Positions 3,183 through 37,715 of a DNA stretch of 38,978 bases are shown here, one piece after another. The translations under genes and the position numbers were made by a program. How positions within the stretch are numbered: position 1 is the first letter of the stretch; every line of letters starts with the position of its first letter. A model generated the notes under the pieces. It was given only the letters and a program-made list of their open reading frames with translations. It was not told the origin of the DNA and ran no database searches. The stretch is from a virus (lineage: Duplodnaviria; Heunggongvirae; Uroviricota; Caudoviricetes): the IMG/VR virus record IMGVR_UViG_2645728091_000012; one strand, written 5' to 3'.

Positions 3183-3378
3183 GTATATTTATCTCATGGC
3201 TTGTTCTGATTATTTCGGTGGCCTGCGCTATTGGGATTATGCGAATTATTCATTCAATAAAAAAGATTGAACGTTTTTTCACTGGCGAATAACAGAGCAA
3301 ATAAAACCACAGATAAAATAAGAAAATGTAAAAACAATCCGCATTAGCGGAGGTATTCGCACACGCCAAGGAGGCGTA

Positions 3379-3582
3379 ATGGCAATTAAGCATTTTCCTG
3401 TCGTTCGTTTTACCTCCAGAGGGCGTGAATACGAAGTCGACGAACGCCTGATTACCACAATCGACAAACACCGTTCGGAAAAGGATGCACACCACATCTA
3501 CCTCACTGACGGCACTTACTTCTGCGCCACCAACGTGGCGCGGGTGAATCTTATCCGACAGGTACAGGAGCCACGCAGATGA
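3379..3582 (+). CDS. Hypothetical early protein
   Basis: 67-aa ORF with AAGGAGG RBS; stop overlaps next start (ATGA). Confidence 0.55.
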   Translation: MAIKHFPVVRFTSRGREYEVDERLITTIDKHRSEKDAHHIYLTDGTYFCATNVARVNLIRQVQEPRR

Positions 3583-3845
3583 CCATTCTGGACTACATCG
3601 CTACCCATCCGGGTTGTAGCGGCGGAGAAATCGCCGCAGCACTGAATACCCCAACCACAGCCATCAATGCTGAGTTACGCCGACTCTGGCGCGGCGGCTT
3701 AGTCATCAGAACAAACCGCAGCACAGGTGGTCGCGCTCGCAAAACTGGAGGCCAGGCTTCTTACCACGTAAACCCGATGCCGTTCGGGTGTAGCAATCCA
3801 CTTACTCACATGTTTAACCAGCTACTGAAGGAAACCAGAGCATGA
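3579..3845 (+). CDS. Hypothetical early protein, possible winged-helix DNA binding
   Basis: 88-aa ORF translationally coupled to both neighbours. Confidence 0.5.
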   Translation: MTILDYIATHPGCSGGEIAAALNTPTTAINAELRRLWRGGLVIRTNRSTGGRARKTGGQASYHVNPMPFGCSNPLTHMFNQLLKETRA

Positions 3846-4141
3846 GCACCATCAATCACCAGAAGCTACGCGAACTGGCATTTGCCCTGCAACGAATGGC
3901 AACGCCTCAAAAATTACTGGTATTTCGCGCAATGCTCTCGCCGTCTGCTGTGCTGGCACTGCTGGATGAGCTGGAGCACGCCAGAACCACGGCTCCTGCC
4001 ATTCGCCTGACGCTCCATCATGAAATCGCTGATTTCTGCGCGACGTTGAAGGCGCCAGGCGAACCGGAAACACCGGAAGCAATACAGCAAGAGCTGCTGC
4101 AACGCATTGACAAGGTTTTTGATTTTTTTCTGAACCAGTAA
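3842..4141 (+). CDS. Hypothetical early protein
   Basis: 99-aa ORF, ATGA overlap with upstream gene. Confidence 0.5.
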   Translation: MSTINHQKLRELAFALQRMATPQKLLVFRAMLSPSAVLALLDELEHARTTAPAIRLTLHHEIADFCATLKAPGEPETPEAIQQELLQRIDKVFDFFLNQ

Positions 4142-4264
4142 GAAACCAGAACATGCACACACAAAAAAACCGCTTGCCATGCCGCAATCAGTCAGGTTAC
4201 ATTTCCGCTGCACCTCACAAAACGGGTGTCGGGTTTCGCAGCCTGCTGACTACACAAGCGCACA

Positions 4265-4284
4265 ACCGCGCCAGCGGTTTTTTT
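4265..4284 (+). terminator. Candidate intrinsic terminator (ACCGC-GCCA-GCGGT followed by T7)
   Basis: 5-bp GC stem, 4-nt loop, 7-T run downstream of the 3379-4141 gene cluster. Confidence 0.4.
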
Positions 4285-4463
4285 GTGCGTACTGTATTGC
4301 CACGTTTTTTTCGCGTCAGAATTATGGCGGGGCGTACGGGGCCGACTTCGGTCGGGCCGGGTTCTTGTGTAGCCGGTACTGCGAACCTCGTACGTCTCGC
4401 CACCCACAGTTTCGCAGCTCTGGATGGTGAGTTTTCACAACTTACTACACAAGGGGCCACACC

Positions 4464-4694
4464 ATGGCAAACCGCAAACCACACCGCGCTATCGCGGAGC
4501 GTCGTCACATCCAGACTGAAATCAACCGCAGACTTTCCCGCGCATCACGCGTCGCGCAAATCATGCACATCAATATGCTGCATGAGCGCAGCCACGCACT
4601 ATCAAACATTTATTCCGCCTCTGTTTTCAGCTATCTGGCGGATGATCTGCACGAGCTTCAACAGCTCATCCAGCAGCAAAACAAACTCCATTAA
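4464..4694 (+). CDS. Hypothetical early protein
   Basis: 76-aa ORF with AAGGGG RBS 8 nt upstream. Confidence 0.5.
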   Translation: MANRKPHRAIAERRHIQTEINRRLSRASRVAQIMHINMLHERSHALSNIYSASVFSYLADDLHELQQLIQQQNKLH

Positions 4695-4766
4695 TTCCTG
4701 TTCCGGGCCTTTCCTGCACCTTGCGGCGGGAGGCCTTCGCACATCTGTAACAAGAGGATTGCCGCA

Positions 4767-5132
4767 ATGATTCTCGCCAACGACTTTCTTGAATACCTGC
4801 TCAACACAGAACGTGATCTTGCCGCTCGCGTGCGTGATCGTTATGACATGTACCAGAAATCCCTGCCTGTACCGCAGCTCGCTGACGGAAAGATTGTTAT
4901 TGATGGTCGCTACATGATTGACAGCCACGAGGGAAATTACAGGCTTTACCGCATTGAAGATGGCACCCCGTCCGTTATTGGCATTTACCAGCGCCCATCC
5001 TCTGCAATCGTCGATGTGATTGCCGACAGCATCCGCATCACACATCGCCATGCCGACACAGAAGACACCGTGCTGGAAATTCAGCGGCTGGCTGCCGTCT
5101 GCCGCGACACCCTGAATGGCATGACGAAGTAA
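4767..5132 (+). CDS. Hypothetical early protein
   Basis: 121-aa ORF with AAGAGG RBS, directly upstream of replication gene. Confidence 0.55.
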   Translation: MILANDFLEYLLNTERDLAARVRDRYDMYQKSLPVPQLADGKIVIDGRYMIDSHEGNYRLYRIEDGTPSVIGIYQRPSSAIVDVIADSIRITHRHADTEDTVLEIQRLAAVCRDTLNGMTK

Positions 5133-5138
5133 ATCACT

Positions 5139-7949
5139 ATGACGGCAGAGTACATCAGGGACTGGCAACAACCGCGCCACGCAGTGGGGCGTGAAGGAAC
5201 GGGGATCCCCGTTCCTGAATCCGCGCTTTCCTCCTGGCTGGATGCCTACCGGGCAGAGAACGAGCGCCGCCAGGAAATGGCTGATGCGGCGTTCTCCGCC
5301 ACGCCGCTGGGCAACCTGATTAATAAAAGCCTGGACGCACAGGAAAAACAGGACAAAACCATCACACTGGCAGGAGACGCCAGAAAACAGGCACGCGGCG
5401 CGGTGGATGAAGCCATGGCCTCGCTGCGCCTGCTGCCGTCCTATCTGCGCGATCCGCTTATTCGCCACCTCTCCTTCCTGCGCAAAAAACAGGAAGCCGA
5501 TCGCCGGAAAGGCAAAAAGAGCTGGCAGGCTGAACGCTACGCGCGCGGAACACTGCGCAAAATATTCGAACGTCTGGACCGCACCGACCACCGCTGGCTG
5601 ACACCGGGTTATCGCTCCCTTGCCGGACGCGAACGCCTGGATGATTTGCTTTACCTGCCGCAGCTCAACCAGTACCAGATACAGACGCTGGCCACCATGA
5701 CGGCGGCGATGTTCAGCAGCACCTTCGAAAAACTCTGCGATGGCTTTGGCGCGACCGATGGCGAACTGACCATGGATGTAACGCTGAAGGCGTATCAGAT
5801 GCTGGCCCGCATGGCGTTACACCTGCACGCCATGCCGCCACATTACGAAGCTCTGAACAAGAGCGATCCGGATACGGAACTGTTACCGGGCGCAATCCTT
5901 CGCCTGACCTGTGCGGAATGGTGGAAACGCAAACTGTGGCTGTTACGTTGCGAGTGGCGGGAAGAACAACTCCGCGCCGCCTGTCTGGTTTCCAGAAAAA
6001 CATCGCCCTATCTGAGCCAGGACGCGTTAAGCGAGTTTCGCGCACAGCGCGAGAAAACACGCGATTTCCTGAAAAGTTTCATTCTGGAAAACGAAGACGG
6101 GTTCACGATTGATCTCGAGACAGTGTATTACGCGGGAGTAAGTAACCCGGTTCACCGTAAGGCAGAAATGATGGCCACCATGAAGGGGCTGGAACTTCTG
6201 GCCGAAGCCCGTGGCGACAAAGCGGTGTTTCTGACCATCACCTGCCCGTCAAAATACCACGCCACAACAGAGAACGGTCATCCGAATCCCAAATGGAACG
6301 GGGCCACCATGCGCGACTCCAGCGATTACCTGGTTAACACGTTTTTTGCGGCGGTCCGCAAGAAACTGAACCGCGACGGCCTGCGCTGGTATGGCATCCG
6401 CACGGTGGAGCCTCACCATGACGGCACCGTGCACTGGCATATGATGGTCTTTGCTCATCCGGAAGAAATCGACACCATTGTGTCCCACACCCGCGATATT
6501 GCCATTCAGGAAGATCGTCACGAGCTGGGTGATGATATTACCCCACGCTTTAAGGCGGAGTACGTCGACGGCTCAAAAGGCACGCCAACCAGCTACATCG
6601 CCACCTACATCGGAAAGAACCTGGACAGCCGCGCCGTAGATGGCATCGACCCGAAAACGGGCAAGCCACGCGTTGACCACGAAACCGGAAAATCAATGGC
6701 CGAGAGCGTGGAACGCGCCATCGGCTGGGCGCGCCTTCACCGTGTCCGCCAGTTCCAGTTCTTTGGTATCCCCTCCCGTCAGGTGTGGCGTGAACTCCGC
6801 CGCCTTGCCAGCCAGATGGCACGCAACCCGGAAGGCCCGCAACGGCTGAAGGATGACGCAATGGATGCGGTACTCGCTGCCGCTGATGCCGGATGTTTTG
6901 CCACCTACATAGAGAAACAGGGCGGCGTACTTGTTCCACGCAAAGACTACCTGATTCGCACCGCCTACGACCTCGCAGATGAGCTGAACGATTACGGCGA
7001 ACAGAGCGTACAGATTTACGGGATCTGGTCGCCGCTCATCGGGGAGTCTTCCCGCGTATGCACGCATCCGGATAACTGGAAGCTGGTAAGACGCAAACCG
7101 GAAGCGGAAGACAGCTCCCACGAAAATGGTTTTGACCTTCAGGGCGGCCCTGCCGCCCCTTGGACTCGTGGCAATAACTGTCCCCGTGTACAGGAAACGA
7201 ACAACAACGGGACAGAACAGCCGGAAGAACGGCCAGCACCGTGGCCGCAGCTCCCTGATGGCGTTGAAGTGAACGAATGGATGCGCTCACTGAAACGGCA
7301 CGAACGCCGGGCGCTGATGCGTTCGCTTCGTGACAAACAGGCAAAAAACAGCAGTGATGAAATGCAGAGCTGGACACAGAGCCGCAAACAGCAGCGGCCT
7401 TTGCCTGATAACCACGAATTACTCGCTAAAGAATGGCGGGAATCTGCCGAATCTCTCGGCCTGCATATCGGTGAACAGCAGATGCAGCACCTGTTACGGG
7501 GCGGCAGCCTGTACGTTGACGGCAGCATCATTGCACCGCAGGGATTTGAAATTGTACGCAAACCGGATACCAGCCCGGACAGCCGAATCACGCAGCTCTG
7601 GCAGCGCCTGAGCCGTAATCACGGCGTAAGCAGCACAGAGATCCGCCATAACCCGGTCGCCAGCTATCTGGAACAACTGGGGGCATCAGACCCCGAAGCC
7701 GCCGCACGTCTGGCATCCACACTTCAGCAGGACCAGAACACCATGAAACCCCCCGTTACCGTGCTTTCTGACATGCTGCGCGCCATCCGTGACACAGAGC
7801 ACGCACAAAGAATCAATGAAACCACTGAACGCGCACGCCGCAAGGCTACTTTGCTCCAAAAGAGAGGCAAACAGCACTTTAGTAATCAAAATGATGATGA
7901 GAAAAAACAATTACAAAGTTGGATATGCCTTTTCCATCATGAGGGATGA
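5139..7949 (+). CDS. A: Rolling-circle replication initiation endonuclease (P2 gpA-like)
   Basis: 936-aa ORF; HUH-type motif (TVHWHMMVF) and gpA-like organisation; position after early operon. Confidence 0.85.
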   Translation: MTAEYIRDWQQPRHAVGREGTGIPVPESALSSWLDAYRAENERRQEMADAAFSATPLGNLINKSLDAQEKQDKTITLAGDARKQARGAVDEAMASLRLLPSYLRDPLIRHLSFLRKKQEADRRKGKKSWQAERYARGTLRKIFERLDRTDHRWLTPGYRSLAGRERLDDLLYLPQLNQYQIQTLATMTAAMFSSTFEKLCDGFGATDGELTMDVTLKAYQMLARMALHLHAMPPHYEALNKSDPDTELLPGAILRLTCAEWWKRKLWLLRCEWREEQLRAACLVSRKTSPYLSQDALSEFRAQREKTRDFLKSFILENEDGFTIDLETVYYAGVSNPVHRKAEMMATMKGLELLAEARGDKAVFLTITCPSKYHATTENGHPNPKWNGATMRDSSDYLVNTFFAAVRKKLNRDGLRWYGIRTVEPHHDGTVHWHMMVFAHPEEIDTIVSHTRDIAIQEDRHELGDDITPRFKAEYVDGSKGTPTSYIATYIGKNLDSRAVDGIDPKTGKPRVDHETGKSMAESVERAIGWARLHRVRQFQFFGIPSRQVWRELRRLASQMARNPEGPQRLKDDAMDAVLAAADAGCFATYIEKQGGVLVPRKDYLIRTAYDLADELNDYGEQSVQIYGIWSPLIGESSRVCTHPDNWKLVRRKPEAEDSSHENGFDLQGGPAAPWTRGNNCPRVQETNNNGTEQPEERPAPWPQLPDGVEVNEWMRSLKRHERRALMRSLRDKQAKNSSDEMQSWTQSRKQQRPLPDNHELLAKEWRESAESLGLHIGEQQMQHLLRGGSLYVDGSIIAPQGFEIVRKPDTSPDSRITQLWQRLSRNHGVSSTEIRHNPVASYLEQLGASDPEAAARLASTLQQDQNTMKPPVTVLSDMLRAIRDTEHAQRINETTERARRKATLLQKRGKQHFSNQNDDEKKQLQSWICLFHHEG

Positions 7950-8134
7950 GATGTGAATCGCTAACCGAATATTGTGTTGAATAGAATGCAATTGATATAA
8001 TTCCCCTTAATTCATTGAAAACTGGATTTTTTGCATAACTATGCAAATATCTATGGACGGCGACGATGTTTTTTATCGGGAAAACTCAAGTGCCATGTTA
8101 AGATTATGTTTATTTTTTACTGAGAAAATCGTGG

Positions 8135-8980
8135 ATGACAAAGCCTTCTCATTTTAGAACCCCTCTTCGTTATCCGGGAGGTAAGGCAAAATTCTTGCCA
8201 CATATTGAACAAATACTCCGCAACAATGATCTCATTGGTGGATGTTATGCTGAACCTTATGCAGGTGGAGCCGGTGTAGCATTAGGTTTGCTCCTTAACG
8301 GTCTTGTTGAAAATATCTTCATAAATGATATTGATCCTGCCCTTTATTCTTTTTGGTTTGCAGTGGTTAATCATAACGATCTGTTATGTGAAATGATTGA
8401 TGAAGTTCCTGTGACTATTGAAAATTGGCATACTCAAAAGGAGATACTCCTAAACAATGATAAATATAGTATGCTTGAAGTCGCATTATCAACTTTCTTT
8501 TTAAATAGAACAAACCGTTCAGGAATACTTAAGGCTGGCGTTATTGGAGGGAAAGAACAAAAAGGACCATGGAAGTTAGATGCAAGATTCAACAAAAAAG
8601 AGTTAATTAAAAGGATTGAACTAATTGGTGCATATAAGGAGAAAATTTACGTATCGAATTTTGATGCTGTAGATTTTCTGCTACACCAAAAAGCATTGCT
8701 ACCCCAAAATAGTCTAATATATCTTGATCCACCTTATTATGTTAAAGGAGCAGAGTTATATAGAAATTTTTATAAACATGATGATCATGTAAAAATCGCT
8801 AATACACTACGGGAAATTCAACTACCTTGGGTTGTGTCTTATGACAATGTGCCTGAAATAAAAAGCATATATCATGAATTCAACATGACTGATTATACGC
8901 TTAATTATACTGCACAAGATAAGAAAAAAGGTCTAGAAATTATCATTTATAATCATGGTATAAAAATCCCTGACATTTAA
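8135..8980 (+). CDS. N6-adenine DNA methyltransferase, Dam/D12 class
   Basis: Motifs seen directly: PGGK near N-terminus, EPYAGGAGV (AdoMet-binding FxGxG-like), FLNRTNRSG, catalytic DPPY; strongly AT-rich compared with flanking phage genes. Confidence 0.8.
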   Translation: MTKPSHFRTPLRYPGGKAKFLPHIEQILRNNDLIGGCYAEPYAGGAGVALGLLLNGLVENIFINDIDPALYSFWFAVVNHNDLLCEMIDEVPVTIENWHTQKEILLNNDKYSMLEVALSTFFLNRTNRSGILKAGVIGGKEQKGPWKLDARFNKKELIKRIELIGAYKEKIYVSNFDAVDFLLHQKALLPQNSLIYLDPPYYVKGAELYRNFYKHDDHVKIANTLREIQLPWVVSYDNVPEIKSIYHEFNMTDYTLNYTAQDKKKGLEIIIYNHGIKIPDI

Positions 8981-8997
8981 ATTTAAGGATGATATAG

Positions 8998-10695
8998 ATG
9001 ATTAAAGAAATTAGTTTTAAAAAATTTAAGAAACTGATAGATATTGACTTCTCATTCAATGAAGACATCAATATAATATCAGGAACCAATGGGACATGTA
9101 AGACAACATTGCTTCATTTAATTAGCAATGGTTTCCAAATGCCACCATCTCGATCACAAAATTATTCAAATAGTAATTGTGTTAGAGTTATAAAATCTAT
9201 AAACAAAATAGCCAACCCCAAAATGGAAGCAATTGTTAGGGAATCAAAAAATTACACCGATCCGGCAGAGGGAACAAAAGGTGTGTTATTTTCTATTAAC
9301 TATTTGGATCATAGCACACTAGACTTCAGAAAGCACAACTCAAAAAATCCAGACGAAGCGCAACGGTATGCTATCAAACCAGTATACCCACGCGGAAAAG
9401 AAAAACAATCACTTCCAGCTAAACCAGTTTTATATCTTGGATTATCGCGACTATTCCCGATTGGTGAAACTAAAGACGACGCCCTTACAAAAATTCCGTT
9501 AAACCTACCAGAAGAGTATGTTGGTTATATATCGAAAATATATAATGAACTTTTGGGCATTAATATTATAAATATAGAATCAAACAATATCGGAGATTTT
9601 AAAGCTGGCCCATTATTTGATACCGATAACCCAGCAATTGATTCTAATACCATATCATCCGGGGAAGACAATATATTCATTATAATCAAGGCATTAGTTA
9701 GCCTTAGGTATTATTTTGAATCACTTATTCAATCCACTGATCAAAAAGAAAGCATTCTGTTAATAGATGAATTTGATGCCACTTTACATCCTTCTTTACA
9801 GATAAGATTATTAGATAAAATTTATCAATACGCAAAAGATTATAAGATTCAAGTATTTTTCACAACGCACAGTCTGACATTGCTAGAATATGCTTTTCAT
9901 AAAAAATACCATGTTGTCTATCTAATTAACAATATTACAAAGGCTCTGCTTTTAGATAATCCTGACATATTAAAAATAACAATGTATCTGAAAACACAAA
10001 CAAAGGATGAGATATACACAAGGAACAAGATACCAGTTTTCACGGAAGATGAAGAAGCTCGCTTTTTATTTAATGAAATACTTGGTTATTGGATAAGCAA
10101 ATATCCAAATTTTGCTATAGTTAGTAATTCATTTCACTTAATTGATTGTTTCATTGGTGCAGACAATTTAAAAACTATTTTTAATGATTCTCATCTTAAG
10201 GAAACCTCGTTAAAATCAATTTGTATTCTTGATGGAGATCACAGCCCTGAGGATCAGAGAGGAATTATATCACTGCCGGGAGAAAAAGCTCCAGAACAAT
10301 TGATATTTGAGCATTGTGAGCACCTTTATAATACCGACGACTCTTCCTTCTGGGAAAATCAGGATATAATTAACAATGGTTTTTCGAAAGAGTTATACTT
10401 ACTCAAGATACGTCCTCAACTACAATCAATTGAAACTGAAATTCAGAAAAGAAAAGACAACCATGAGTCTACATCCGGTTTAAGAAGAAAATTAAATAAG
10501 AAAATATTCAATCAGCATATTGAATTCTTTAGAATGATTACAAGAAACTGGTTAGACAAACCAGAAAATCAGAAATCTCTCCAGTATTTTTACAATGGAT
10601 TACGATCCTTATTCTACCGGGTTACACCAACAAACGGCATTGACAGAAAAATTTGGGATTTTGACTATAACAAAATCATTAAAGAGGATAAATAA
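8998..10695 (+). CDS. OLD-family-like ATP-dependent nuclease: N-terminal ABC ATPase plus C-terminal TOPRIM-like domain
   Basis: Walker A GTNGTCKTT, SSGE signature-like, Walker B ILLIDEFD, H-loop FFTTHS; C-terminal FTEDEE and ILDGD about 55 aa apart, matching the TOPRIM Glu...DxD pattern; 17 bp after the methyltransferase; AT-rich. Confidence 0.65.
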   Translation: MIKEISFKKFKKLIDIDFSFNEDINIISGTNGTCKTTLLHLISNGFQMPPSRSQNYSNSNCVRVIKSINKIANPKMEAIVRESKNYTDPAEGTKGVLFSINYLDHSTLDFRKHNSKNPDEAQRYAIKPVYPRGKEKQSLPAKPVLYLGLSRLFPIGETKDDALTKIPLNLPEEYVGYISKIYNELLGINIINIESNNIGDFKAGPLFDTDNPAIDSNTISSGEDNIFIIIKALVSLRYYFESLIQSTDQKESILLIDEFDATLHPSLQIRLLDKIYQYAKDYKIQVFFTTHSLTLLEYAFHKKYHVVYLINNITKALLLDNPDILKITMYLKTQTKDEIYTRNKIPVFTEDEEARFLFNEILGYWISKYPNFAIVSNSFHLIDCFIGADNLKTIFNDSHLKETSLKSICILDGDHSPEDQRGIISLPGEKAPEQLIFEHCEHLYNTDDSSFWENQDIINNGFSKELYLLKIRPQLQSIETEIQKRKDNHESTSGLRRKLNKKIFNQHIEFFRMITRNWLDKPENQKSLQYFYNGLRSLFYRVTPTNGIDRKIWDFDYNKIIKEDK

Positions 10696-10774
10696 TGTAT
10701 TCTAATAGAATATAAACATCAAAGCTATATTCTTTACACATATCAAGAGTAAAAAATAATTTAACTTTATACAT

Positions 10775-10810
10775 AACGACCTCTTTTACAAATAAGTAGA
10801 AAAGGTCGTT
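10775..10810 (+). terminator. Hairpin downstream of the accessory cassette
   Basis: AACGACCTCTTTTAC / GTAGAAAAGGTCGTT imperfect inverted repeat (13 of 15 pairs) with 6-nt loop, 80 bp after the stop at 10695. Confidence 0.45.
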
Positions 10811-10935
10811 ATAACTCTCATCTCCATAGCATGTAATTTTCTTTGCATATTTTCACATAACAGTCAGGGATGTATTTATAAGCAACGTCGTATACATAGG
10901 CTCAATTTTTCTATAAATAAACACTCCGTTCGGTT

Positions 10936-10962
10936 TGCACAATAGTGCACAAATTTGCACAA
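10936..10962. repeat. Three TGCACAA repeats at 10-bp spacing in the probable cos/packaging region
   Basis: TGCACAA at 10936, 10946 and 10956; lies in the non-coding gap between the accessory cassette and portal gene Q, where P2-type phages carry cos. Confidence 0.4.
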
Positions 10963-11336
10963 TTTTTTTGAACGACTTTTTGCCCTTCCGGCCCGCATGG
11001 CGGCTGGATCCGTCAAGGATCCGTGCGTGCACAAAAAAACGCGTTTTTTCTGCGCGCAGGTGACGGGGGAACAGCCCGCGTTTCAGGGGGTAAATAGCAT
11101 TCCCTGAACGATGTCGCAGAGATAGAACAGAATGGCTGTATTTCTCACGCTGAGCGTGAAAAAGACGTGAGGGCTTTTGATTTGATGGGGTGAAAGGTAA
11201 GGCCGTCAAAATCGCACTGAGACGGCGAGAACATGCAGTCAACGCGGTGGGATTGCGTAAGAGTCTGACTGTCGATGATGGCAATCAGCAGGAAAGCGTC
11301 GTGAAATTATCTGACTGATACAGGAGCTGGAGAGTC

Positions 11337-11359
11337 GGGGCATAAATTTTTTATGCCCC
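11337..11359 (-). terminator. Hairpin downstream of portal gene Q
   Basis: GGGGCATAAA-TTT-TTTATGCCCC stem-loop just past the Q stop codon on the minus strand; no clean U-tract. Confidence 0.4.
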
Positions 11360-11386
11360 GGCGAAGCAGCAGACAAGCGAAGCGCG

Positions 11387-12433
11387 TCAGGATGTGGGCT
11401 GGGTGTCTAACAGTGCGTAAGGGTTAAAGCGGATCACCTCTTCGCCAAGCCAGTCATTGATGTGCTTCATGGCCTCCATGACGGGCATCAGCTCGTTAAT
11501 TGCGTAAACCCGCGCGGCCTTCTCCACATCACCAAACGCACTTTTTTCGCCCGGCATCGCCCCCATCAGTTGCGGCGGAACGCGGTGCGCAGCCAGCACA
11601 TCATCACGGGATGCCGCCTTAACATTCATGAACTCATCCTTTGCGGTGATCTGCTGGAACGGCAAAATTTGCACCCCTTCTTTGCCCCCGTTGGGCGCAT
11701 GAATGAGCACGTTTTTAAATGCACCACCACCACGCGCACCCTGTAACGTTTCTTTCAGGGAGTCCATGCTTTCGCGGTTTACCTGCGCTGCACCGATGTA
11801 GATGATGCACCCGGCGTGGGATCCGTTGTCGTAGTACAGTTTTCTGAACATGTCCGCCGAATGAGAAAGGCTGGCCGAGAGTAATGCGCCAAGATATTCC
11901 GGCATGCCGTAGATTTCCTGGTTAATATCCGGATTCATCAGGTGGCACACTTTGCCAGGGCGAAACTGGAACGCGTCCTTGCCATCCTGCACATACCACC
12001 ATGATTCAAGATCGCTTCCGCGTCGCATGTATTTCGCCAGGGCGTGCCGTAATTTAAGCGGTTCGCCGAGCATATTGCTCCGAAGCTCAAGGAATGCGTT
12101 ACCGAACACAAACCAGTCCAGCGCCAGCGCCGAGAAATCCTGCCGGGAAAGCAGCGGGTGCGGGATGTAGCACCCGAGCAATACATTACGCTTAAAGTAA
12201 AGCGCAGACTGATGCCAGGACGTTTGCCGGGCGGCTCTTGCCAGACTGTACCAGTCCACCGGGGTTTCATACCACCGCCCGTTATCAGCACAGTACATAT
12301 TGTCCAGCAGGTCATGCCCGGTCAGGCGATAAGGACCATCAAATGTGAATGCACTGAGCGATGATTCTTTCCTGAGCGCATCAGCGAGATCAATGCGTGA
12401 ACTCATGCGCACTTTTTTATTTTTTCTGCTCAT
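11387..12433 (-). CDS. Q: Portal protein (P2 gpQ-like)
   Basis: 348-aa ORF, size and position as in the P2 Q-P divergent packaging module. Confidence 0.8.
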   Translation of the reverse strand: MSRKNKKVRMSSRIDLADALRKESSLSAFTFDGPYRLTGHDLLDNMYCADNGRWYETPVDWYSLARAARQTSWHQSALYFKRNVLLGCYIPHPLLSRQDFSALALDWFVFGNAFLELRSNMLGEPLKLRHALAKYMRRGSDLESWWYVQDGKDAFQFRPGKVCHLMNPDINQEIYGMPEYLGALLSASLSHSADMFRKLYYDNGSHAGCIIYIGAAQVNRESMDSLKETLQGARGGGAFKNVLIHAPNGGKEGVQILPFQQITAKDEFMNVKAASRDDVLAAHRVPPQLMGAMPGEKSAFGDVEKAARVYAINELMPVMEAMKHINDWLGEEVIRFNPYALLDTQPTS

Positions 12434-14184
12434 CAGAACTCCATAACCGTAAAACGCTCGTTTTCCCCTTCGCCGCCAATCGGTTCGTTAATGACAGCAA
12501 GCATGGTTGCCCACGCAAGGTCGCCGTGGCTGATCCCCCTCGCACGGTCCGTTTCGTAAGTGATAAAGCCGCCCGGTGTTTTCACCTTACGCACGGCGTT
12601 AAAGGCTGCGACCAGCTCGCGTTCGGCGCGATCATATTCCCACCGCCCGGCACGCATTATTTGCAGCATTTTCAGTACCAGCGACCGTTTTGATGACAGC
12701 GTGAAGGTGTACGGAATAGCAGCAGGGAAAAACCGTTTCACTATCTGATAAACAGCCTCCCCGTTCCCGCCCGTCACATCAATGCCGATGTGTTCCACGT
12801 TGTAGCGACACGTGAACTCTTCAATGACTCTGGCCTGTTCTTCAAACTCCAGCCCCTGAACGCGTCGCGTCTCCACCGTTCGAAAACGGCCTCCAGGAAC
12901 AGCCGGAGGAACCACCACGGACACAGCGCCGCTGTCGCCGTTTCCACTGCTGCCGTTTGCGTCATACCCAATCCATACCGGACGATTCCCCATCGGGCGG
13001 GGAGCAAAAGGTTTCCAGTCTTTCCAGTCGTCGTATCCGTCAACACCGCAGCCAATCAGGATATTCAGGTTAAATGCCGATTCCCCTTCGCGGACAAACT
13101 CACACATATAGAGATTGCGGAACTCGTCTTCGGTGTTTTCATCACGAATTTCGTCAATATCGGTGTGTTTCCAGCCGTGATTAACCACATCTTCCAGCGT
13201 GACAATTTGCCGCCACGTCCGGTCAGGGCAGATAAGCCCGTTATGCAGCGTTTTCCAGTCCACAGAAAAACGCTGGCGTTTATGCGTGGCCTTTTTCTCG
13301 TTCCAGCGGTCGCCATTCCAGTAGGCGTATGCCTCGTGCGTTTCGGTGGATGGCGTGGAGAAGTAGGTGCGCCGCAGTCCGCTGAGGGTTGCCATAGCGC
13401 CAGCCACCTTGCGCAGTTCAGCAAAGCGACTGACCCAGAAAAATTCATCAAAATAAAAATTGCCCGTGTAGGACTGTGCCGTCGCAGCAGAAGTACCAAG
13501 AAAATGCAGCTCTGCGCCGTTGGAGAGGATGATTTTATCGCCCCCTTTCAGCTCCACATCAACTTCAGCCGCAGCCTTCTGAATAATGCTTTTAAACTGG
13601 AACGCCTGACGACGCGACGCAGACAAAAAAATCTGGTTACGCTGGTAAGGTTGTGCCACATCGTCACGCAGCGCCATCAGCAGTGCTTCCTGTGCAAAAT
13701 ACCAGGTCGCCCCAATCTGTCGGGATTTCAGGATCATCCTGTTACGTATCCCGGCTTCCCTGCAAAGGGTCAGGGAGTCAAACCAGCCCCGCTGATGCCA
13801 CTCCAGCCTGCTGATGATTTTTTCCCGCAGTGCGGCAATCTGTTCCGGCGTGAAATGATTTTTGAGTTTTTTCGCCCGGCCTTTCTTTCCTGCGGCCATC
13901 ACATCCGGCTGGCCATCATGCAGCTTTTTAAGCTGCCGGGTCAGCAGGTCTATTTCCTTGAAGTCACCACCTGTTTTATTCTGTTTTTCAGTAAGCTGGA
14001 TGAGGCGCGCATCGATGGACTGCGTGACACGCTGCACGGGTGGCGTTTCATCCCACTGGTCGCGTTTTTTCCACGCATAAATCGTGTTCGGGTTTATTCC
14101 CATCAGACGTGATATTTCTGCGGGCGGATAACCCTGCCAGTAAAGTTGCCGCGCACGCTGGCGCACAAAAGCGTCCTGAATCAT
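12433..14184 (-). CDS. P: Terminase large (ATPase) subunit (P2 gpP-like)
   Basis: 583-aa ORF overlapping Q start; terminase-like size and position. Confidence 0.8.
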   Translation of the reverse strand: MIQDAFVRQRARQLYWQGYPPAEISRLMGINPNTIYAWKKRDQWDETPPVQRVTQSIDARLIQLTEKQNKTGGDFKEIDLLTRQLKKLHDGQPDVMAAGKKGRAKKLKNHFTPEQIAALREKIISRLEWHQRGWFDSLTLCREAGIRNRMILKSRQIGATWYFAQEALLMALRDDVAQPYQRNQIFLSASRRQAFQFKSIIQKAAAEVDVELKGGDKIILSNGAELHFLGTSAATAQSYTGNFYFDEFFWVSRFAELRKVAGAMATLSGLRRTYFSTPSTETHEAYAYWNGDRWNEKKATHKRQRFSVDWKTLHNGLICPDRTWRQIVTLEDVVNHGWKHTDIDEIRDENTEDEFRNLYMCEFVREGESAFNLNILIGCGVDGYDDWKDWKPFAPRPMGNRPVWIGYDANGSSGNGDSGAVSVVVPPAVPGGRFRTVETRRVQGLEFEEQARVIEEFTCRYNVEHIGIDVTGGNGEAVYQIVKRFFPAAIPYTFTLSSKRSLVLKMLQIMRAGRWEYDRAERELVAAFNAVRKVKTPGGFITYETDRARGISHGDLAWATMLAVINEPIGGEGENERFTVMEF

Positions 14185-25259: not shown

Positions 25260-25793
25260 TCATTCTGGTTGTTCTGGAAACGTTACTGGCAGGCTGGAGG
25301 TGTCTGTAGATTCGACTTTCTGCGCATAGAGCATCCACTCGGTTAATTTTTGTTTATTCTCGTCGGAAATGATGCCCAGCCGTAGCTGTGAGTCCCATAG
25401 CTGGGTTTTATCCCTGACAAGTTGCAACAGGCTTTGCTTTTCATTTTCCGCCTGTTGCCTCTGCTCTTCCCCGGTATAAGTTCGCTTTATCACTGCGCCA
25501 TCTTTGAACATCCATTTACCCGAAATATCAGCCCGGCGATTTGCTGTAATATCAGGTAATTCAACGACGCTTGCGCCTTCCGGATTAATTGCTGAAACAT
25601 CCTTTTCAATACAAATAATAACGCCGTTATGGTCATAGGCCATTTTCAATGTGTCTGGCCGGAAATTCTTTTGTTCCTCATACCAGTTTTTTCCATCATC
25701 TGAATAAAGCCATTTGATGTTAAATTGCTTTGTTAGCTGGTATTGCTCTTTTGTTTTAGGATTGCCAGCAGTAATGTTTTTTAAGTGCATCAT
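25260..25793 (-). CDS. Alternative tail fibre assembly chaperone (G')
   Basis: 177 aa; N-terminus nearly identical to G, then diverges. Confidence 0.8.
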   Translation of the reverse strand: MMHLKNITAGNPKTKEQYQLTKQFNIKWLYSDDGKNWYEEQKNFRPDTLKMAYDHNGVIICIEKDVSAINPEGASVVELPDITANRRADISGKWMFKDGAVIKRTYTGEEQRQQAENEKQSLLQLVRDKTQLWDSQLRLGIISDENKQKLTEWMLYAQKVESTDTSSLPVTFPEQPE

Positions 25794-25795
25794 AA

Positions 25796-26740
25796 TTAAA
25801 TACTCCCTGCGTTATACCACGTTCCATTAATGCAATACTGAATTGGCCTTGCCTGAGTTGTATCAATTAATTCATCACGGTTTCCGTTAACTGAACCAGT
25901 AACGACATAACCTGACCTGTCAGACCAGCCAGGACCATTCCATGTCTGAACAGATGACAGACCGCCAAGGCGAATACCTGTAATAAACCTTGAGTTACAT
26001 TCTGCCTGCGTATATGCACCAACATCTCCCGCAGAGGGTTTGCGTGTTGTGGTGTAAAACTCTGACCAGTTAGCTTCAAAGCCATAACCATCACGCGCTG
26101 AACGATAAAAGATACCGCCATTTCTGTAATTCACGCGGAACTGTACAGCAGGGCAACTCCCCGCATTCATATTAAAGTGGAGGATTAATGTCGATGCGCC
26201 ACTGATATCTGCATTATAAACGCCGCTATTCCAGTTCCAGCCAACAGCTTTATCATTTGCAACCCTGCTTCCTGTTTGCCCTAAAGCAAATGCAGGCTGC
26301 TGGTTTTTCGTGTTGTAGTCTCGTCGCCAGCCAGGAGCGTAAGCATCACCATGATTAATATAAGTGAATTGAGCGTTAGTGATTCCGCCGCCGCTGGACG
26401 TACTCGGCGTGGTAACGCGTATGGTCATTGCGCCGCGAGTGCCAATAACTTCCACCACAGCACCTGCAAGACAAATATTTCCGCAACCTGTATCTGTAAT
26501 GACCTTATTGTTTGCATAAGCCCATGAGCCTTTGCACATCCAGTAAGGATGGTTAAATGCTCCCTGACTCTCCAGCCACGAAATAAATTGCGCGGTTGTC
26601 CAGACCTGACTATCACCACCAATATTCAGCCATGCGCTATATGCGCGGCAGGCACCAATATTTTTGGTGAAGGTATCTTTTCCTGGAATATCTGCGCCGT
26701 TCTGGTTTTTCTGTAATGCGCCAGAAGCCTGATTTACCGT
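25796..26740 (-). CDS. Alternative tail-fibre C-terminal variable segment (silent orientation, no own start)
   Basis: Reading the minus strand from the right crossover site is open and in frame with the H constant part after inversion; C-terminus GTWYNAGSI parallels H's GIWYNVGSV. Confidence 0.75.
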   Translation of the reverse strand, partial: TVNQASGALQKNQNGADIPGKDTFTKNIGACRAYSAWLNIGGDSQVWTTAQFISWLESQGAFNHPYWMCKGSWAYANNKVITDTGCGNICLAGAVVEVIGTRGAMTIRVTTPSTSSGGGITNAQFTYINHGDAYAPGWRRDYNTKNQQPAFALGQTGSRVANDKAVGWNWNSGVYNADISGASTLILHFNMNAGSCPAVQFRVNYRNGGIFYRSARDGYGFEANWSEFYTTTRKPSAGDVGAYTQAECNSRFITGIRLGGLSSVQTWNGPGWSDRSGYVVTGSVNGNRDELIDTTQARPIQYCINGTWYNAGSI

Positions 26741-26766
26741 TTCCTGTAAACCGAGGTTTTAGATAA
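26741..26766. repeat. Right crossover site of invertible segment (gix/hix-like)
   Basis: TTCCTGTAAACCGAGGTTTTAGATAA, inverted copy of the site inside H. Confidence 0.8.
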
Positions 26767-26820
26767 TGGCCGTTTCCGGCCTGCATGGCATGATTTGCGC
26801 TTTTGGACGGGAGATTCAGT

Positions 26821-27411
26821 GTGCTGATTGGTTATGTAAGGGTATCAACAAATGACCAGAATACAGACCTGCAACGAAACGCTCTTGTTTGTGCAGGATG
26901 TGAACAAATATTTGAAGATAAATTAAGCGGAACAAAGACAGACCGACCGGGATTAAAACGCGCTTTAAAGCAGCTTCAAAAAGGTGACACGCTGGTTGTC
27001 TGGAAACTGGATCGCCTTGGGCGAAGCATGAAACATCTGATTTCTCTCGTCGGAGAACTACGGGAGCGAGGGATTAATTTTCGCAGTCTGACCGACAGCA
27101 TAGATACATCTTCTCCAATGGGGCGTTTTTTCTTCCACGTGATGGGTGCCCTGGCTGAAATGGAACGTGAATTAATTGTTGAACGTACACTGGCCGGACT
27201 GGCGGCAGCGCGCGCACGGGGGCGCACAGGCGGACGTCGACCGAAGCTGACAAAAGAACAGCATGAGCAAATAGCAAGGCTGATTAAAAACGGTCACGAC
27301 AGAAAACAACTGGCAATAATTTACAGCATTGGTATATCGACAATTTATCGTTACCACCCCGCAGGAGAATCAAGTGGAACAATTGAGAAGAGTAAACAAA
27401 ATAACCGCTAA
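26821..27411 (+). CDS. Serine DNA invertase (Gin/Hin/Pin/Cin family)
   Basis: Begins (V)LIGYVRVSTNDQ with catalytic Ser context; resolvase-type N-terminal domain and C-terminal HTH; next to invertible segment. GTG start at 26821 preferred over ORF-track TTG 26803. Confidence 0.85.
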   Translation: MLIGYVRVSTNDQNTDLQRNALVCAGCEQIFEDKLSGTKTDRPGLKRALKQLQKGDTLVVWKLDRLGRSMKHLISLVGELRERGINFRSLTDSIDTSSPMGRFFFHVMGALAEMERELIVERTLAGLAAARARGRTGGRRPKLTKEQHEQIARLIKNGHDRKQLAIIYSIGISTIYRYHPAGESSGTIEKSKQNNR

Positions 27412-34417: not shown

Positions 34418-35440
34418 TTAATACGCATTTAATTTAAATTTGTATTTGCCTTCTATGTAATGGATAAATTCAATTATGCTTTTTTCTATCGCATCTAATA
34501 TATGAATATATCCATCCCGATTTAAGGTCCTATCCAACTCAAAGTGATGAACTATCCCATGTCTATATTGTATGATTTCAGAAATTCGATTCTCAAGAAA
34601 ATCAACTGATTTTCCAATTCTTTTTTTCTTATAAAGAATCGCTCTCACATCTATATCCAGCCACTCTTTATATGCTTTATTTAGGTGGGTTAAGTTTTGA
34701 AAAGTGTAATTTCTTGCAATAACACTTTCTATTGAAATATTTCCTTTCTCTATCTCAAGCAGAATATCAAAATCAACTTTTTGCTTATACGATGTTCTTT
34801 TTGCTATTGCGAAAGGATCGTACTTTATAAGTATTTGAAAAGCTCTAGAGAAAAAATATTCAAACATAGCAACCGCAAAAGGTACTAATCCATTATATAT
34901 AACTCTACTGGGATCCATACATTGCATGTAATCAAAGTATTCGGATAAGCCGCCATCTTCCGGTAGGTTTAATTTAATAGAAGGTTCAGGTAAGGCATGT
35001 TTAACAGCGGAAATCTCATGATGGACATGATTAAATATTGAAGAAATGCCACGACTGATCGGACTACTAGAATCCTTCCATAGAGGAGCGTACCTATTTT
35101 TCCCATAATCACCTATAAGTGTTCCACCAAAAAGACTCCGTGCGCCTTTTAGAACATCATTAAGCATTTTTACATCATGCCAACTAGCGCTATATAAATT
35201 ACGCACATGCAATGCCCATTTATTACCAGATATGTGTAGTTCGTCATTTGAAACAGGATATATATCAGCCGAAACTCCATCTGTAGATTTGAAGTCCGTA
35301 TCATCAAACCAAGAGTAATTCAACGTTCCTTGGGGCCATTCCCACAAATGTTTACACCTTTTAAAACCTAAATTTTCAAGGTAATTTTTAAGTTCGTTTC
35401 TAGTTGCTTTTTTAGGGTACAGCGTTATATCTCTTCCCAT
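34418..35440 (-). CDS. Hypothetical accessory (moron) protein; weak HEPN-like Rx4H motif (RHGIVH) near C-terminus
   Basis: 340-aa ORF antisense to flanking late genes, markedly AT-rich, inserted between D and ogr; AT-rich promoter-like flank. Confidence 0.6.
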   Translation of the reverse strand: MGRDITLYPKKATRNELKNYLENLGFKRCKHLWEWPQGTLNYSWFDDTDFKSTDGVSADIYPVSNDELHISGNKWALHVRNLYSASWHDVKMLNDVLKGARSLFGGTLIGDYGKNRYAPLWKDSSSPISRGISSIFNHVHHEISAVKHALPEPSIKLNLPEDGGLSEYFDYMQCMDPSRVIYNGLVPFAVAMFEYFFSRAFQILIKYDPFAIAKRTSYKQKVDFDILLEIEKGNISIESVIARNYTFQNLTHLNKAYKEWLDIDVRAILYKKKRIGKSVDFLENRISEIIQYRHGIVHHFELDRTLNRDGYIHILDAIEKSIIEFIHYIEGKYKFKLNAY

Positions 35441-36821: not shown

Positions 36822-37715
36822 ATGAAAAATATAATTTTTTCTATAGGTGCATCATTTATATCAATTAGTGTACTGCCTGTTCACGCAGCAACTGAACATA
36901 ATAACTTCAATGCAGTACTCCAGTGCCGAGCAATAGAAAATAATAAAGACAGACTTTCTTGTTACGATAAGTCAATACAACCGACTCGAACGAAAGTTGC
37001 TGAAAAATTCGAAAGCAGAGATCAATGCCCTGATGAGAAAGATGATGACAGACGTTTATCTTGTTATGATCGTTTTTTTTCTCCAACATTTACTCCATCT
37101 GTAAACTCAAAATCTAAAACGGAAAAGCTAGTAACAACAGAGGCTCAGCAACCAAATCTTTCTGAGATATCTAAATGCCGAGCAGAAAATGATAAAGAAG
37201 CCAGACTAAACTGCTACGATAAACTATTCCCACAGGATAAAGCTGTTCAAGCTGAATCAAAATTAGAGAAAGCCACAGATGTAGGAAAATGGCACACATC
37301 CATTACTACATCGCCAATTGATGATTCGAAAAATGTAATTTTATCGTTAGAAAGTGATGATTATATCAGAACTCCATTTGGAGAAGCGGTTACTCCTACT
37401 CTGTTTATAGCTTGCCGAGAAAAGAAAACCGAAGTATTTCTTAGTTGGGATGTATATTTAGGCCTTGAACAAACCAGCATGCTTTATCGTCTTGATAAAC
37501 AGAAAGCAGTTGAGCGAAACTGGCTAGTATCTACAGATACAAAGGCTGTTTTTTATAAAGGTAATGACATTGATTTCATCCGAAAACTAGCCAACTCAAA
37601 CAAAATGTATACAAAAATAACTCCTTATAATGAGAGCCCTGTAAGTGCAACTTTCAATTTAAACGGCCTGTCAAACGCGCTAAAACCACTTCAAGCTGCT
37701 TGTAACTGGAAATAG
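36822..37715 (+). CDS. Exported protein with three Cys-pair repeats (hypothetical)
   Basis: Sec-type signal peptide (..VLPVHA/ATE); three repeats of C-x(9-12)-RL[SN]CYD[KR]; AT-rich; 4 bp after previous gene. Confidence 0.6.
   Translation: MKNIIFSIGASFISISVLPVHAATEHNNFNAVLQCRAIENNKDRLSCYDKSIQPTRTKVAEKFESRDQCPDEKDDDRRLSCYDRFFSPTFTPSVNSKSKTEKLVTTEAQQPNLSEISKCRAENDKEARLNCYDKLFPQDKAVQAESKLEKATDVGKWHTSITTSPIDDSKNVILSLESDDYIRTPFGEAVTPTLFIACREKKTEVFLSWDVYLGLEQTSMLYRLDKQKAVERNWLVSTDTKAVFYKGNDIDFIRKLANSNKMYTKITPYNESPVSATFNLNGLSNALKPLQAACNWK

Follow-up and report, generated by a model that had tools for sequence, protein, structure and literature searches.

OLD-type proteins join an ABC ATPase to a TOPRIM nuclease, and how they discriminate self from foreign nucleic acid is still debated for P2 Old and for the Gabija, retron and PARIS effectors. 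The abstract of one recent study describes self versus non-self discrimination by Gabija as unknown. A two-gene cassette in a P2-like prophage of the Caudoviricetes, IMG/VR record IMGVR_UViG_2645728091_000012 (38,978 nucleotides, the whole of which is referred to here as the window), raises the question of whether DNA methylation could supply this signal. The cassette consists of a methyltransferase gene (8135–8980, plus strand, 281 residues; gene 1) followed by a gene for an OLD-like ATPase-TOPRIM protein (8998–10695, plus strand, 565 residues; gene 2). The two families are found together across bacterial phyla, and the methyltransferase is shared with the defence system PD-λ-5.

A methyltransferase of the PD-λ-5 family

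Gene 1 encodes a D12-class DNA methyltransferase. Its S-adenosylmethionine-binding motif and DPPY motif follow the order of the alpha class, and residues 13–253 score 74.6 bits against Pfam MethyltransfD12, well above the gathering cut-off of 22. By far the strongest match is to the PADLOC model PD-Lambda-5_B (PDLC04018), with an E-value of 8.7e-122 over residues 6–280. The second PADLOC match is the MTase_II model at 9.1e-108, which supports the methyltransferase side only of a Type II restriction-modification (R-M) system; no restriction endonuclease model was matched. Members of the family are collinear with a mean column identity of 54%, and lack a variable target-recognition segment.

An earlier note on this DNA had called gene 1 a Dam-family N6-adenine methyltransferase. 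The D12 assignment stands, but Dam is too specific a label, as the protein reaches 70.4 bits on the NCBIfam dam model (TIGR00571) against a cut-off of 114.85 and is therefore not a Dam orthologue. The nearest solved structure is M.CbeI (7M6B, E 1.5e-17), which its depositors describe as an alpha-class N4-cytosine methyltransferase with a DPPY motif. The methylated base can therefore not be read from family membership alone, and the 'adenine' annotation of the family is not secure from sequence alone. Some guidance comes from PD-λ-5, the cloning of which required an mrr-deleted host (Vassallo et al. 2022). This requirement means that the PD-λ-5_B family methyltransferase modifies host DNA, and that the gene 1 family is not a GATC Dam. 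The known behaviour of Mrr favours N6-methyladenine at a non-GATC site for an enzyme of this family.

An OLD-like ATPase-TOPRIM partner

The N-terminal domain of gene 2 is an OLD-family ATPase in which Walker A, the ABC signature, Walker B and the H-loop are all present. It scores 47.2 bits against Pfam AAA_15 (cut-off 32.1) and 42.2 bits against AAA_21 (cut-off 27). Sequence matches in the PDB comprise PtuA, AriA, retron ATPases and TsOLD, and the structural matches of the ATPase domain are the heads of SMC, Rad50, PtuA and AriA.

The C-terminal domain was modelled with a predicted local distance difference test score (pLDDT) of 88.5 and a predicted template-modelling score of 0.84. The model has a beta-alpha-beta-alpha-beta-beta-alpha topology, with E350 placed after strand 1 and D412-G-D414 after strand 3. 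This agrees with the TOPRIM fold of the OLD family and its conserved glutamate and DxD metal-binding motif, which correspond to the invariant E350 and D412-x-D414 of gene 2 and its relatives, although the scores are moderate and not strong. In a Foldseek search with the full-length model, the retron Eco8 OLD protein, GajA and TsOLD rank above ATPase-only proteins, and the C-terminal helices fall within regions of 127–153 residues that align to OLD-type C-terminal domains. Positions 312–409 of the PADLOC HEC-04 profile are matched by all 20 of the 20 C-terminal fragments searched (best 9.5e-10); against the full-length gene 2 protein this profile gives 1.3e-16, well below family-level similarity. 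In several relatives the alignment to the retron I-B ATPase-Toprim model also runs through its TOPRIM part.

Pfam, with its models for TOPRIM, OLD and DUF4435 included, found no match in the C-terminal ~250 residues of the window protein or of 19 relatives. The most divergent matches from a representative library, tried as a possible transitive bridge to TOPRIM or DUF4435, returned ATPase domains only in Pfam. Similarly, hhalign of the family alignment against P2 Old, at full length or with the C-terminus alone, aligned the Walker B segment only and gave no TOPRIM alignment. The basis of the TOPRIM call is hence structure prediction, fold search and two PADLOC profiles, with Pfam silent. On these grounds gene 2 is accepted as an OLD-like ATPase/TOPRIM protein and predicted nuclease, with structural scores that are moderate. 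Residues K35, S220, G222, D257, E258, E350, D351, D412 and D414 are invariant in 130 methylase-linked homologues with identities down to 18%, which at the level of sequence establishes both predicted catalytic centres as intact and conserved.

Much of the earlier description of the two proteins holds. The translations contain every motif that it quoted (for gene 1, EPYAGGAG and DPPY; for gene 2, GTNGTCKTT, LLIDEFD, TTHS, FTEDEE and ILDGD), and the ABC ATPase plus TOPRIM architecture that it proposed agrees with the profile matches and with the folding of the C-terminal model.

Near-obligate linkage of the two genes

A pattern scan of one genome per species recovered 80 ATPase loci, of which 72 are evaluable. 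They come from Bacillota, Pseudomonadota, Actinomycetota, Spirochaetota, Planctomycetota, Kiritimatiellia, Deferribacterota, Mycoplasmatota and one archaeal metagenome-assembled genome. A methyltransferase of the gene 1 family, 35–58% identical to that of the window, lies beside the ATPase in 70/72 evaluable loci. The distance is at most 400 bp in 64 of these 70. Most often the methyltransferase follows the ATPase; the reverse order, seen in the window, is less frequent. Since both families remain adjacent in nearly all evaluable loci, the pairing is not due to chance. Divergence of the ATPase is correlated with that of the methyltransferase (r = 0.42), a value reached by none of 999 Mantel permutations. 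The linkage is thus established as near-obligate and beyond chance, and the co-occurrence that the earlier note had proposed to check holds well beyond this prophage. Earlier spot checks had found the pairing in 5/5 cases.

The contexts of the pair are those of mobile elements. Pairs with an ATPase identity of only 24–32% are carried by temperate phages of Citrobacter, Streptococcus and Vibrio (phiNP, Javan645 and ValB1MD-2), by an integrative and conjugative element of E. coli and by integrase-adjacent islands. At ≥98% identity the cassette itself is present in 15 of 5426 complete E. coli genomes, each time with both genes and each time on the chromosome. Megablast of the cassette against a phage collection gave no match.

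Among the ten loci without a methyltransferase, seven are cut by a contig end, L092 is ambiguous with its upstream side cut off, and L070 and L071 are complete. In the latter two the ATPase (~3971–5737) is neighboured by an AbiTii-domain protein and a 710-residue HerA-like (DUF87) protein. Two further neighbouring open reading frames match neither Pfam nor PADLOC, so a different methyltransferase may be encoded there. This arrangement suggests recruitment of the ATPase into a different system, and it follows that the ATPase can persist without this methyltransferase family. A further locus, L013, was considered as a natural methyltransferase knock-out with a 195-residue call beside an intact ATPase; its DNA is identical to that of L011 and the short call is a gene-calling artefact.

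A conserved protein of 237–282 residues, absent from the window, precedes the methyltransferase-ATPase pair in Klebsiella, Salmonella and one metagenomic relative. It was considered as a truncated PD-λ-5_A and rejected, having no Pfam or PD-λ-5_A match and several hydrophobic helices that resemble a multi-pass membrane protein. It may be an accessory component.

The methyltransferase as a hub

Gene 1 is 53% identical to the methyltransferase of a canonical PD-λ-5 locus in the P2 hotspot, which is as close as it is to ATPase-linked enzymes. PD-λ-5 is a validated defence system, effective against almost every phage with which it was challenged, and its authors described it as a compacted RM+Abi system (Vassallo et al. 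2022). The N-terminal domain of its A component, a ParB/HEPN protein, is GmrSD_N/ParB-like, a type that also occurs in Type IV enzymes. In the window the B methyltransferase is present without an adjacent A protein, the neighbours of gene 1 being gpA and the ATPase, and PD-λ-5_A profiles gave no match at E <= 0.01 among all window open reading frames of at least 50 residues. PD-λ-5_A is likewise absent from the relatives of the window locus with 71–83% identity from Klebsiella, Salmonella and Pectobacterium.

The family has three partners in E. coli: a ParB/Srx-annotated protein in a lambdoid prophage, a 501-residue 'hypothetical' protein in the P2 hotspot, and the ATPase. The first two match PD-Lambda-5_A at 4e-74 and 5.3e-168, and both non-ATPase loci are therefore canonical PD-λ-5. 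In viral contigs, 65 loci of the methyltransferase family divide into 33 with PD-λ-5_A, 20 with the ATPase, 2 with both and 10 with neither. Of these last ten, three are cut at the contig start, one has a 1.2 kb upstream flank, three are fragments and three look like true orphans. A dedicated partner in 55/65 viral loci shows that the methyltransferase is not a generic orphan, as the reading in the earlier note requires. More distant D12 enzymes have neither partner.

The two partners are not mutually exclusive. In four ATPase loci the apparent gap between ATPase and methyltransferase is a PD-λ-5_A gene, and a profile scan of all loci found ~24 three-gene loci with ParB/HEPN protein, methyltransferase and ATPase in several gene orders. 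These include L022–L024, the closest relatives outside the Enterobacteriaceae clade to share the gene order of the window, which read ParB/HEPN, methyltransferase, ATPase. The methyltransferases cluster by partner, with a nearest-neighbour concordance of 98/109 compared to 61±6 after shuffling. This is one methyltransferase-centred family with two effector types, the ParB/HEPN protein and the OLD-like ATPase, used singly or together, and the role of the methyltransferase as its hub is established. If the pair has the restriction role proposed below, it would be the R-M core of a wider family composed of the methyltransferase, the OLD-like ATPase-TOPRIM protein and the ParB/HEPN protein, with PD-λ-5 as the other two-gene subset of three components.

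Relation to known defence systems

PD-λ-5 shares with the window locus its methyltransferase family, its two-gene methyltransferase-centred design and its occurrence in the P2 hotspot and other prophage contexts, and the three-gene loci physically join the two. It differs in that the ParB/HEPN A protein is replaced in the window by the OLD-like ABC ATPase-TOPRIM protein. With the A component missing, the two-component definition of PADLOC would not call the window locus PD-λ-5. The identity of the methyltransferase as PD-λ-5 'B' was overlooked in the earlier note.

Gene 2 has the N-terminal ABC ATPase, C-terminal TOPRIM domain and E...DxD metal site of the OLD family, represented by P2 Old and TsOLD (Class 1), GajA (Class 2), the retron Eco8 effector (Class 3) and AriA/AriB of PARIS. 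Members of this family are its best structural matches, both full-length and at the level of domains, and the founding member, P2 old, sits in the same P2 slot. However, there is no detectable direct sequence similarity of gene 2 to the P2 Old TOPRIM, and the conserved partner is a methyltransferase, as opposed to none, a UvrD helicase or a reverse transcriptase. The stand-alone Class 1 does not describe a protein with so constant a methyltransferase neighbour. A UvrD-like helicase (GajB), as in Class 2 or Gabija, is absent between gpA and gpQ and from related loci. For Class 3 (retron I-B), there is no reverse-transcriptase open reading frame in 7950–11386, a search that did not extend to the non-coding RNA, and gene 2 matches the ATPase-Toprim_I-B model at only 8.9e-16. 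The AriA and AriAB models of PARIS match at ~1e-15 over ATPase segments only, with no DUF4435 match.

A 2023 review of OLD proteins defines Classes 1–3 by genomic context (stand-alone, helicase, retron) and cites a wider scheme, with no methylase partner. OLD papers of 2025 and 2026 mention none either, and neither the domain pair nor a methylase-linked OLD class came up in literature searches. A dedicated methyltransferase partner thus lies outside the recognised OLD contexts, as had been proposed in the earlier note. PADLOC v2 has no model for ATPases of the gene 2 type, which show generic similarity at 1e-16 to 1e-22, and four divergent methylase-linked ATPases also matched no dedicated model, with generic OLD-ABC matches at ~1e-20.

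The closest sequence-level relative of the gene 2 TOPRIM region is HEC-04, and the match covers the validated E/DxD site of that protein. HEC-04 is also a single-protein ABC ATPase-TOPRIM defence and is found in a methylase-containing (Hma) neighbourhood (Payne et al. 2024 preprint). It differs in that it works alone and is facultatively embedded, whereas members of the gene 2 family nearly always have a partner from a single methyltransferase family.

Classical R-M systems (Type II and the ATP-dependent Types I and III) resemble the cassette as mobile two-gene units of methyltransferase and nuclease that occur in both gene orders. The predicted nuclease of the cassette, however, is an ABC-ATPase/TOPRIM protein and not a PD-(D/E)XK, HNH or SF2-helicase enzyme, and specificity diversification is not visible in the cassette family. 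An ATPase-nuclease partner of a methyltransferase recalls the Res subunit of Type III systems. Another parallel is EcoprrI-PrrC, where an R-M system harbours an ABC-ATPase-like anticodon nuclease, so that an ABC-type ATPase-nuclease is tied to DNA methylation as in the cassette. Vassallo et al. appeal to the same 'RM+Abi' logic for PD-λ-5. The PrrC nuclease is HEPN, however, and belongs to a complete Type I system that has a restriction subunit of its own, whereas the cassette has no other restriction enzyme to guard.

The cassette has been listed before and is not unseen. Table S5A of Rousset et al. 2022 includes 'MethyltransfD12 + AAA_15/AAA_21, WP_001581117 + WP_001581118' among the P2-hotspot arrangements, and these are the accessions of annotated E. 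coli cassette copies. The proposal that the pair matches no named system therefore survives in part: the pair itself is unnamed, but its methyltransferase is PD-Lambda-5_B of a named and validated system, and the arrangement is on record. Nor is the cassette categorically new relative to OLD nucleases and PD-λ-5-type methylase systems. Another entry of the same table (supplement file 6) is a split C5-methylase analogue of the ParB/HEPN plus methyltransferase design of PD-λ-5.

A possible restriction-modification role and its rivals

In the reading preferred here, given nearly an even chance, self DNA is recognised by its methylation, and the OLD-like enzyme serves as the restriction component against incoming DNA that lacks the mark. 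The cassette would then be a moron of the P2 accessory hotspot whose two genes form a methylation-linked defence against phages. Gene 1 would act as a constitutively active site-specific methyltransferase and label the host chromosome, together with the prophage, as self. Gene 2 would be the effector, in which the ABC ATPase serves as the sensor and motor of an attached two-metal TOPRIM nuclease, and would be licensed by DNA without the mark, most likely resulting in ATP-dependent cleavage of unmethylated incoming DNA as in R-M. It may be inferred that the pair is active in defence, that methylation is the self mark and that DNA rather than tRNA is the substrate.

Several observations are consistent with such a role. 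The linkage as seen from either gene, the three-gene loci, the correlated divergences, the invariant catalytic residues and the OLD-like fold of gene 2 all fit it, as does the broad defence by PD-λ-5 with a methyltransferase that acts on host DNA. DNA cleavage in vitro is documented for OLD enzymes of Classes 1 and 2 (2023 OLD review), and defence by HEC-04 requires its Walker A and the TOPRIM metal residues E319/D375/D377 (Payne et al. 2024 preprint). The methyltransferase-first order and 17-nt coupling fit the safe establishment of a restriction-like system. As the HEPN protein already supplies an abortive-type effector in three-gene loci, the ATPase-TOPRIM protein is the natural candidate for the restriction component. 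Taken further, and somewhat more tentatively, the pair could be the minimal form of an unrecognised ATP-dependent R-M class with an OLD-family restriction subunit. This would make it a fifth, methylase-linked OLD class in which methylation is the missing self/non-self signal for OLD-type nucleases, with the three-gene forms adding a ParB/HEPN abortive layer.

A number of points weigh against a restriction role. Family membership of gene 1 fixes neither the modified base nor the motif, and both cassette proteins are unusually conserved, unlike the specificity-diversifying families of classical R-M. The ATPase occurs without this methyltransferase family, if only in L070 and L071 (Rhizobium and Pseudorhizobium). 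The alternative partner of the methyltransferase has a HEPN domain, typically an RNase, which points to abortive logic, and the OLD-type TOPRIM effectors P2 Old and PARIS AriB are abortive tRNases in vivo and not DNases. Finally, while the cassette is listed by Rousset et al. 2022, it is absent from their tested-system table and text.

Some of these points feed the main rival, which is judged rather unlikely. Here the cassette would follow a guard or abortive infection logic similar to EcoprrI-PrrC, with the ATPase-TOPRIM protein as a latent suicide effector, possibly a tRNase, that keeps watch on the methyltransferase, on the state of methylation or on anti-restriction factors of the phage. 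Its action would be to kill or arrest the cell under infection and not to restrict the incoming DNA. Besides the tRNA cleavage by P2 Old and AriB, OLD-ABC/TOPRIM modules have been described as backup suicidal effectors within the methylation-based BREX and Hma systems, and HEC-04 is toxic on induction (Payne et al. 2024 preprint). The pairing of the same methyltransferase with ParB/HEPN in PD-λ-5, termed 'RM+Abi', the low diversification of both partners and the position of the L070/L071 ATPase beside an AbiTii gene would also suit a guard. Nonetheless, cross-phylum, near-obligate linkage to one methyltransferase family exceeds the facultative embedding of backup effectors, the in vitro DNase activity of OLD Class 1 and 2 enzymes does not favour a guard, and in three-gene loci the HEPN protein is already the abortive-type effector, leaving a restriction role to the ATPase-TOPRIM protein.

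The remaining explanations are less probable still. A selfish addiction module, in which loss of the cassette dilutes methylation and leftover nuclease attacks the chromosome, would retain the prophage or island with defence as a by-product. In the close linkage of its two genes the pair recalls Type II R-M addiction modules, and it is carried on many mobile elements, including the P2 hotspot, integrase-adjacent islands, integrative and conjugative elements and temperate phages. Yet anti-phage cargo dominates the P2 hotspot and the sibling PD-λ-5 is broadly protective, which makes addiction improbable as the main function; it is in any case not exclusive of defence and is compatible with either the restriction or the guard model. 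That the two genes are independent morons sharing a hotspot, an orphan methyltransferase that shields the prophage from restriction by its host and a Class 1-like OLD nuclease that works alone, is largely excluded and very improbable. Either kind of gene can be found by itself in phages, and P2 has a stand-alone old in this slot. However, the linkage persists from phylum to phylum whichever gene comes first, neither gene is missing from any of the 15 E. coli copies, the two proteins diverge in a correlated manner and the methyltransferase family is almost never orphan. Least probable of all, and also largely excluded, is a Type IV-like, modification-dependent logic in which phage DNA receives its mark from the methyltransferase and DNA so methylated is the target of the nuclease. 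The GmrSD_N/ParB-like domain of PD-λ-5_A is suggestive of it, but the PD-λ-5 methyltransferase evidently modifies host DNA, as the need for an mrr-deleted host indicates. As host DNA carries the mark, a nuclease targeting that mark would be self-lethal.

Significance

An OLD-like nuclease genetically locked to one methyltransferase family gives a simple and testable self-marking hypothesis for this group of enzymes, and if true would extend R-M to a new nuclease and ATPase chassis. It also reframes PD-λ-5 as one outcome of a methyltransferase hub that recruits a ParB/HEPN protein, an OLD-like nuclease or both, in a family spanning many bacterial phyla, one archaeal metagenome-assembled genome and many temperate phages. 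Forms that contain the ATPase would be missed by current defence finders. The cassette would be expected to affect phage host range in carrier lineages of E. coli, Klebsiella and Salmonella, and may require an mrr-deleted cloning host. Demonstration of methylation-gated restriction by an OLD-type enzyme would raise the interest of the system further.

Layout of the locus and neighbouring features

The cassette lies in the gpA/gpQ slot, where P2 has tin and old, as seen by comparison with annotated E. coli relatives and the P2 reference. The replication endonuclease and portal/terminase flanks agree with this, so the placement at the P2 tin/old hotspot given in the earlier note is correct. So is its description of an AT-rich operon with 17-nt spacing, which matches the open reading frame coordinates and the GC content (Table 1). 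The AAGGA in the spacer implies co-transcription of genes 1 and 2. A consensus scan of the presumed promoter region found no convincing plus-strand sigma-70 site, and the regional site count is not above that of shuffled sequences. Terminator-like sites number 4 in the region compared to 2.2 expected in the consensus scan.

Table 1. Coordinates of the cassette, its domains and its flanks. Positions refer to the window except in the last row, where they refer to the loci named.
Feature	Position	Strand	Details
P2-type replication endonuclease, flank of island	5139-7949		
Upstream intergenic region, presumed promoter of cassette	7950..8134	+	
AT-rich accessory island, P2 gpA/gpQ hotspot	8001..11000	.	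GC 0.29-0.36, flanks 0.51-0.60
Gene 1, D12-class DNA methyltransferase, PD-λ-5_B family	8135..8980	+	Pfam PF02086 1.3e-20; PADLOC PD-Lambda-5_B 8.7e-122
Gene 1 motif I, EPYAGGAG	8252-8275	+	aa 40-47
Gene 1 DPPY motif	8726-8737	+	aa 198-201
Spacer	8981..8997	+	17 nt, with AAGGA ribosome-binding site for gene 2
Gene 2, OLD-type ABC ATPase domain	8998..9951	+	aa 1-318
Gene 2 Walker A	9100-9102	+	K35
Gene 2 conserved beta-rich insert inside ATPase domain			aa ~45-220
Gene 2 ABC signature and H-loop			S220/G222; H291
Gene 2 Walker B	9766-9771	+	D257-E258
Gene 2, predicted TOPRIM nuclease core	10024..10332	+	aa 343-445; E350-D351 at 10045-10050; D412-G-D414 at 10231-10239
Gene 2, C-terminal helical region plus stop codon	10333..10695	+	aa 446-565; predicted helices, pLDDT ~90-96
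Terminator-like hairpin and T-run 3' of gene 2	10945..10970	+	weak evidence, consensus scan
Portal gene, flank of island	11387-12433	minus	
Portal and terminase genes	11387-14184	minus	
Upstream protein of 237-282 aa in related loci	3289-4002 (L182-L184, L011-L013); 193-1041 (L188)		

The replication endonuclease of the window is longer than its P2 counterpart, with 936 residues compared to 761 in P2 gpA (2286 bp, NC_001895). Elsewhere in the window, a serine resolvase/invertase gene (26803–27411, E 1.1e-50) adjoins genes for a tail-fibre C-terminus and tail-fibre assembly on the opposite strand, and the region 25260–27411 has the appearance of an invertible segment governing host range. A second AT-rich island (GC ~0.32–0.35) just past the last P2-like late gene holds a minus-strand gene of 340 residues (34418–35440) with a weak RiboL-PSP-HEPN match (1.2e-4, below the Pfam cut-off), which may be another defence moron at the prophage end. 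Beyond the prophage end, an AT-rich gene at 36822–37715 encodes a VasI-type (type VI secretion) domain (4.3e-25) and is unrelated to the cassette.

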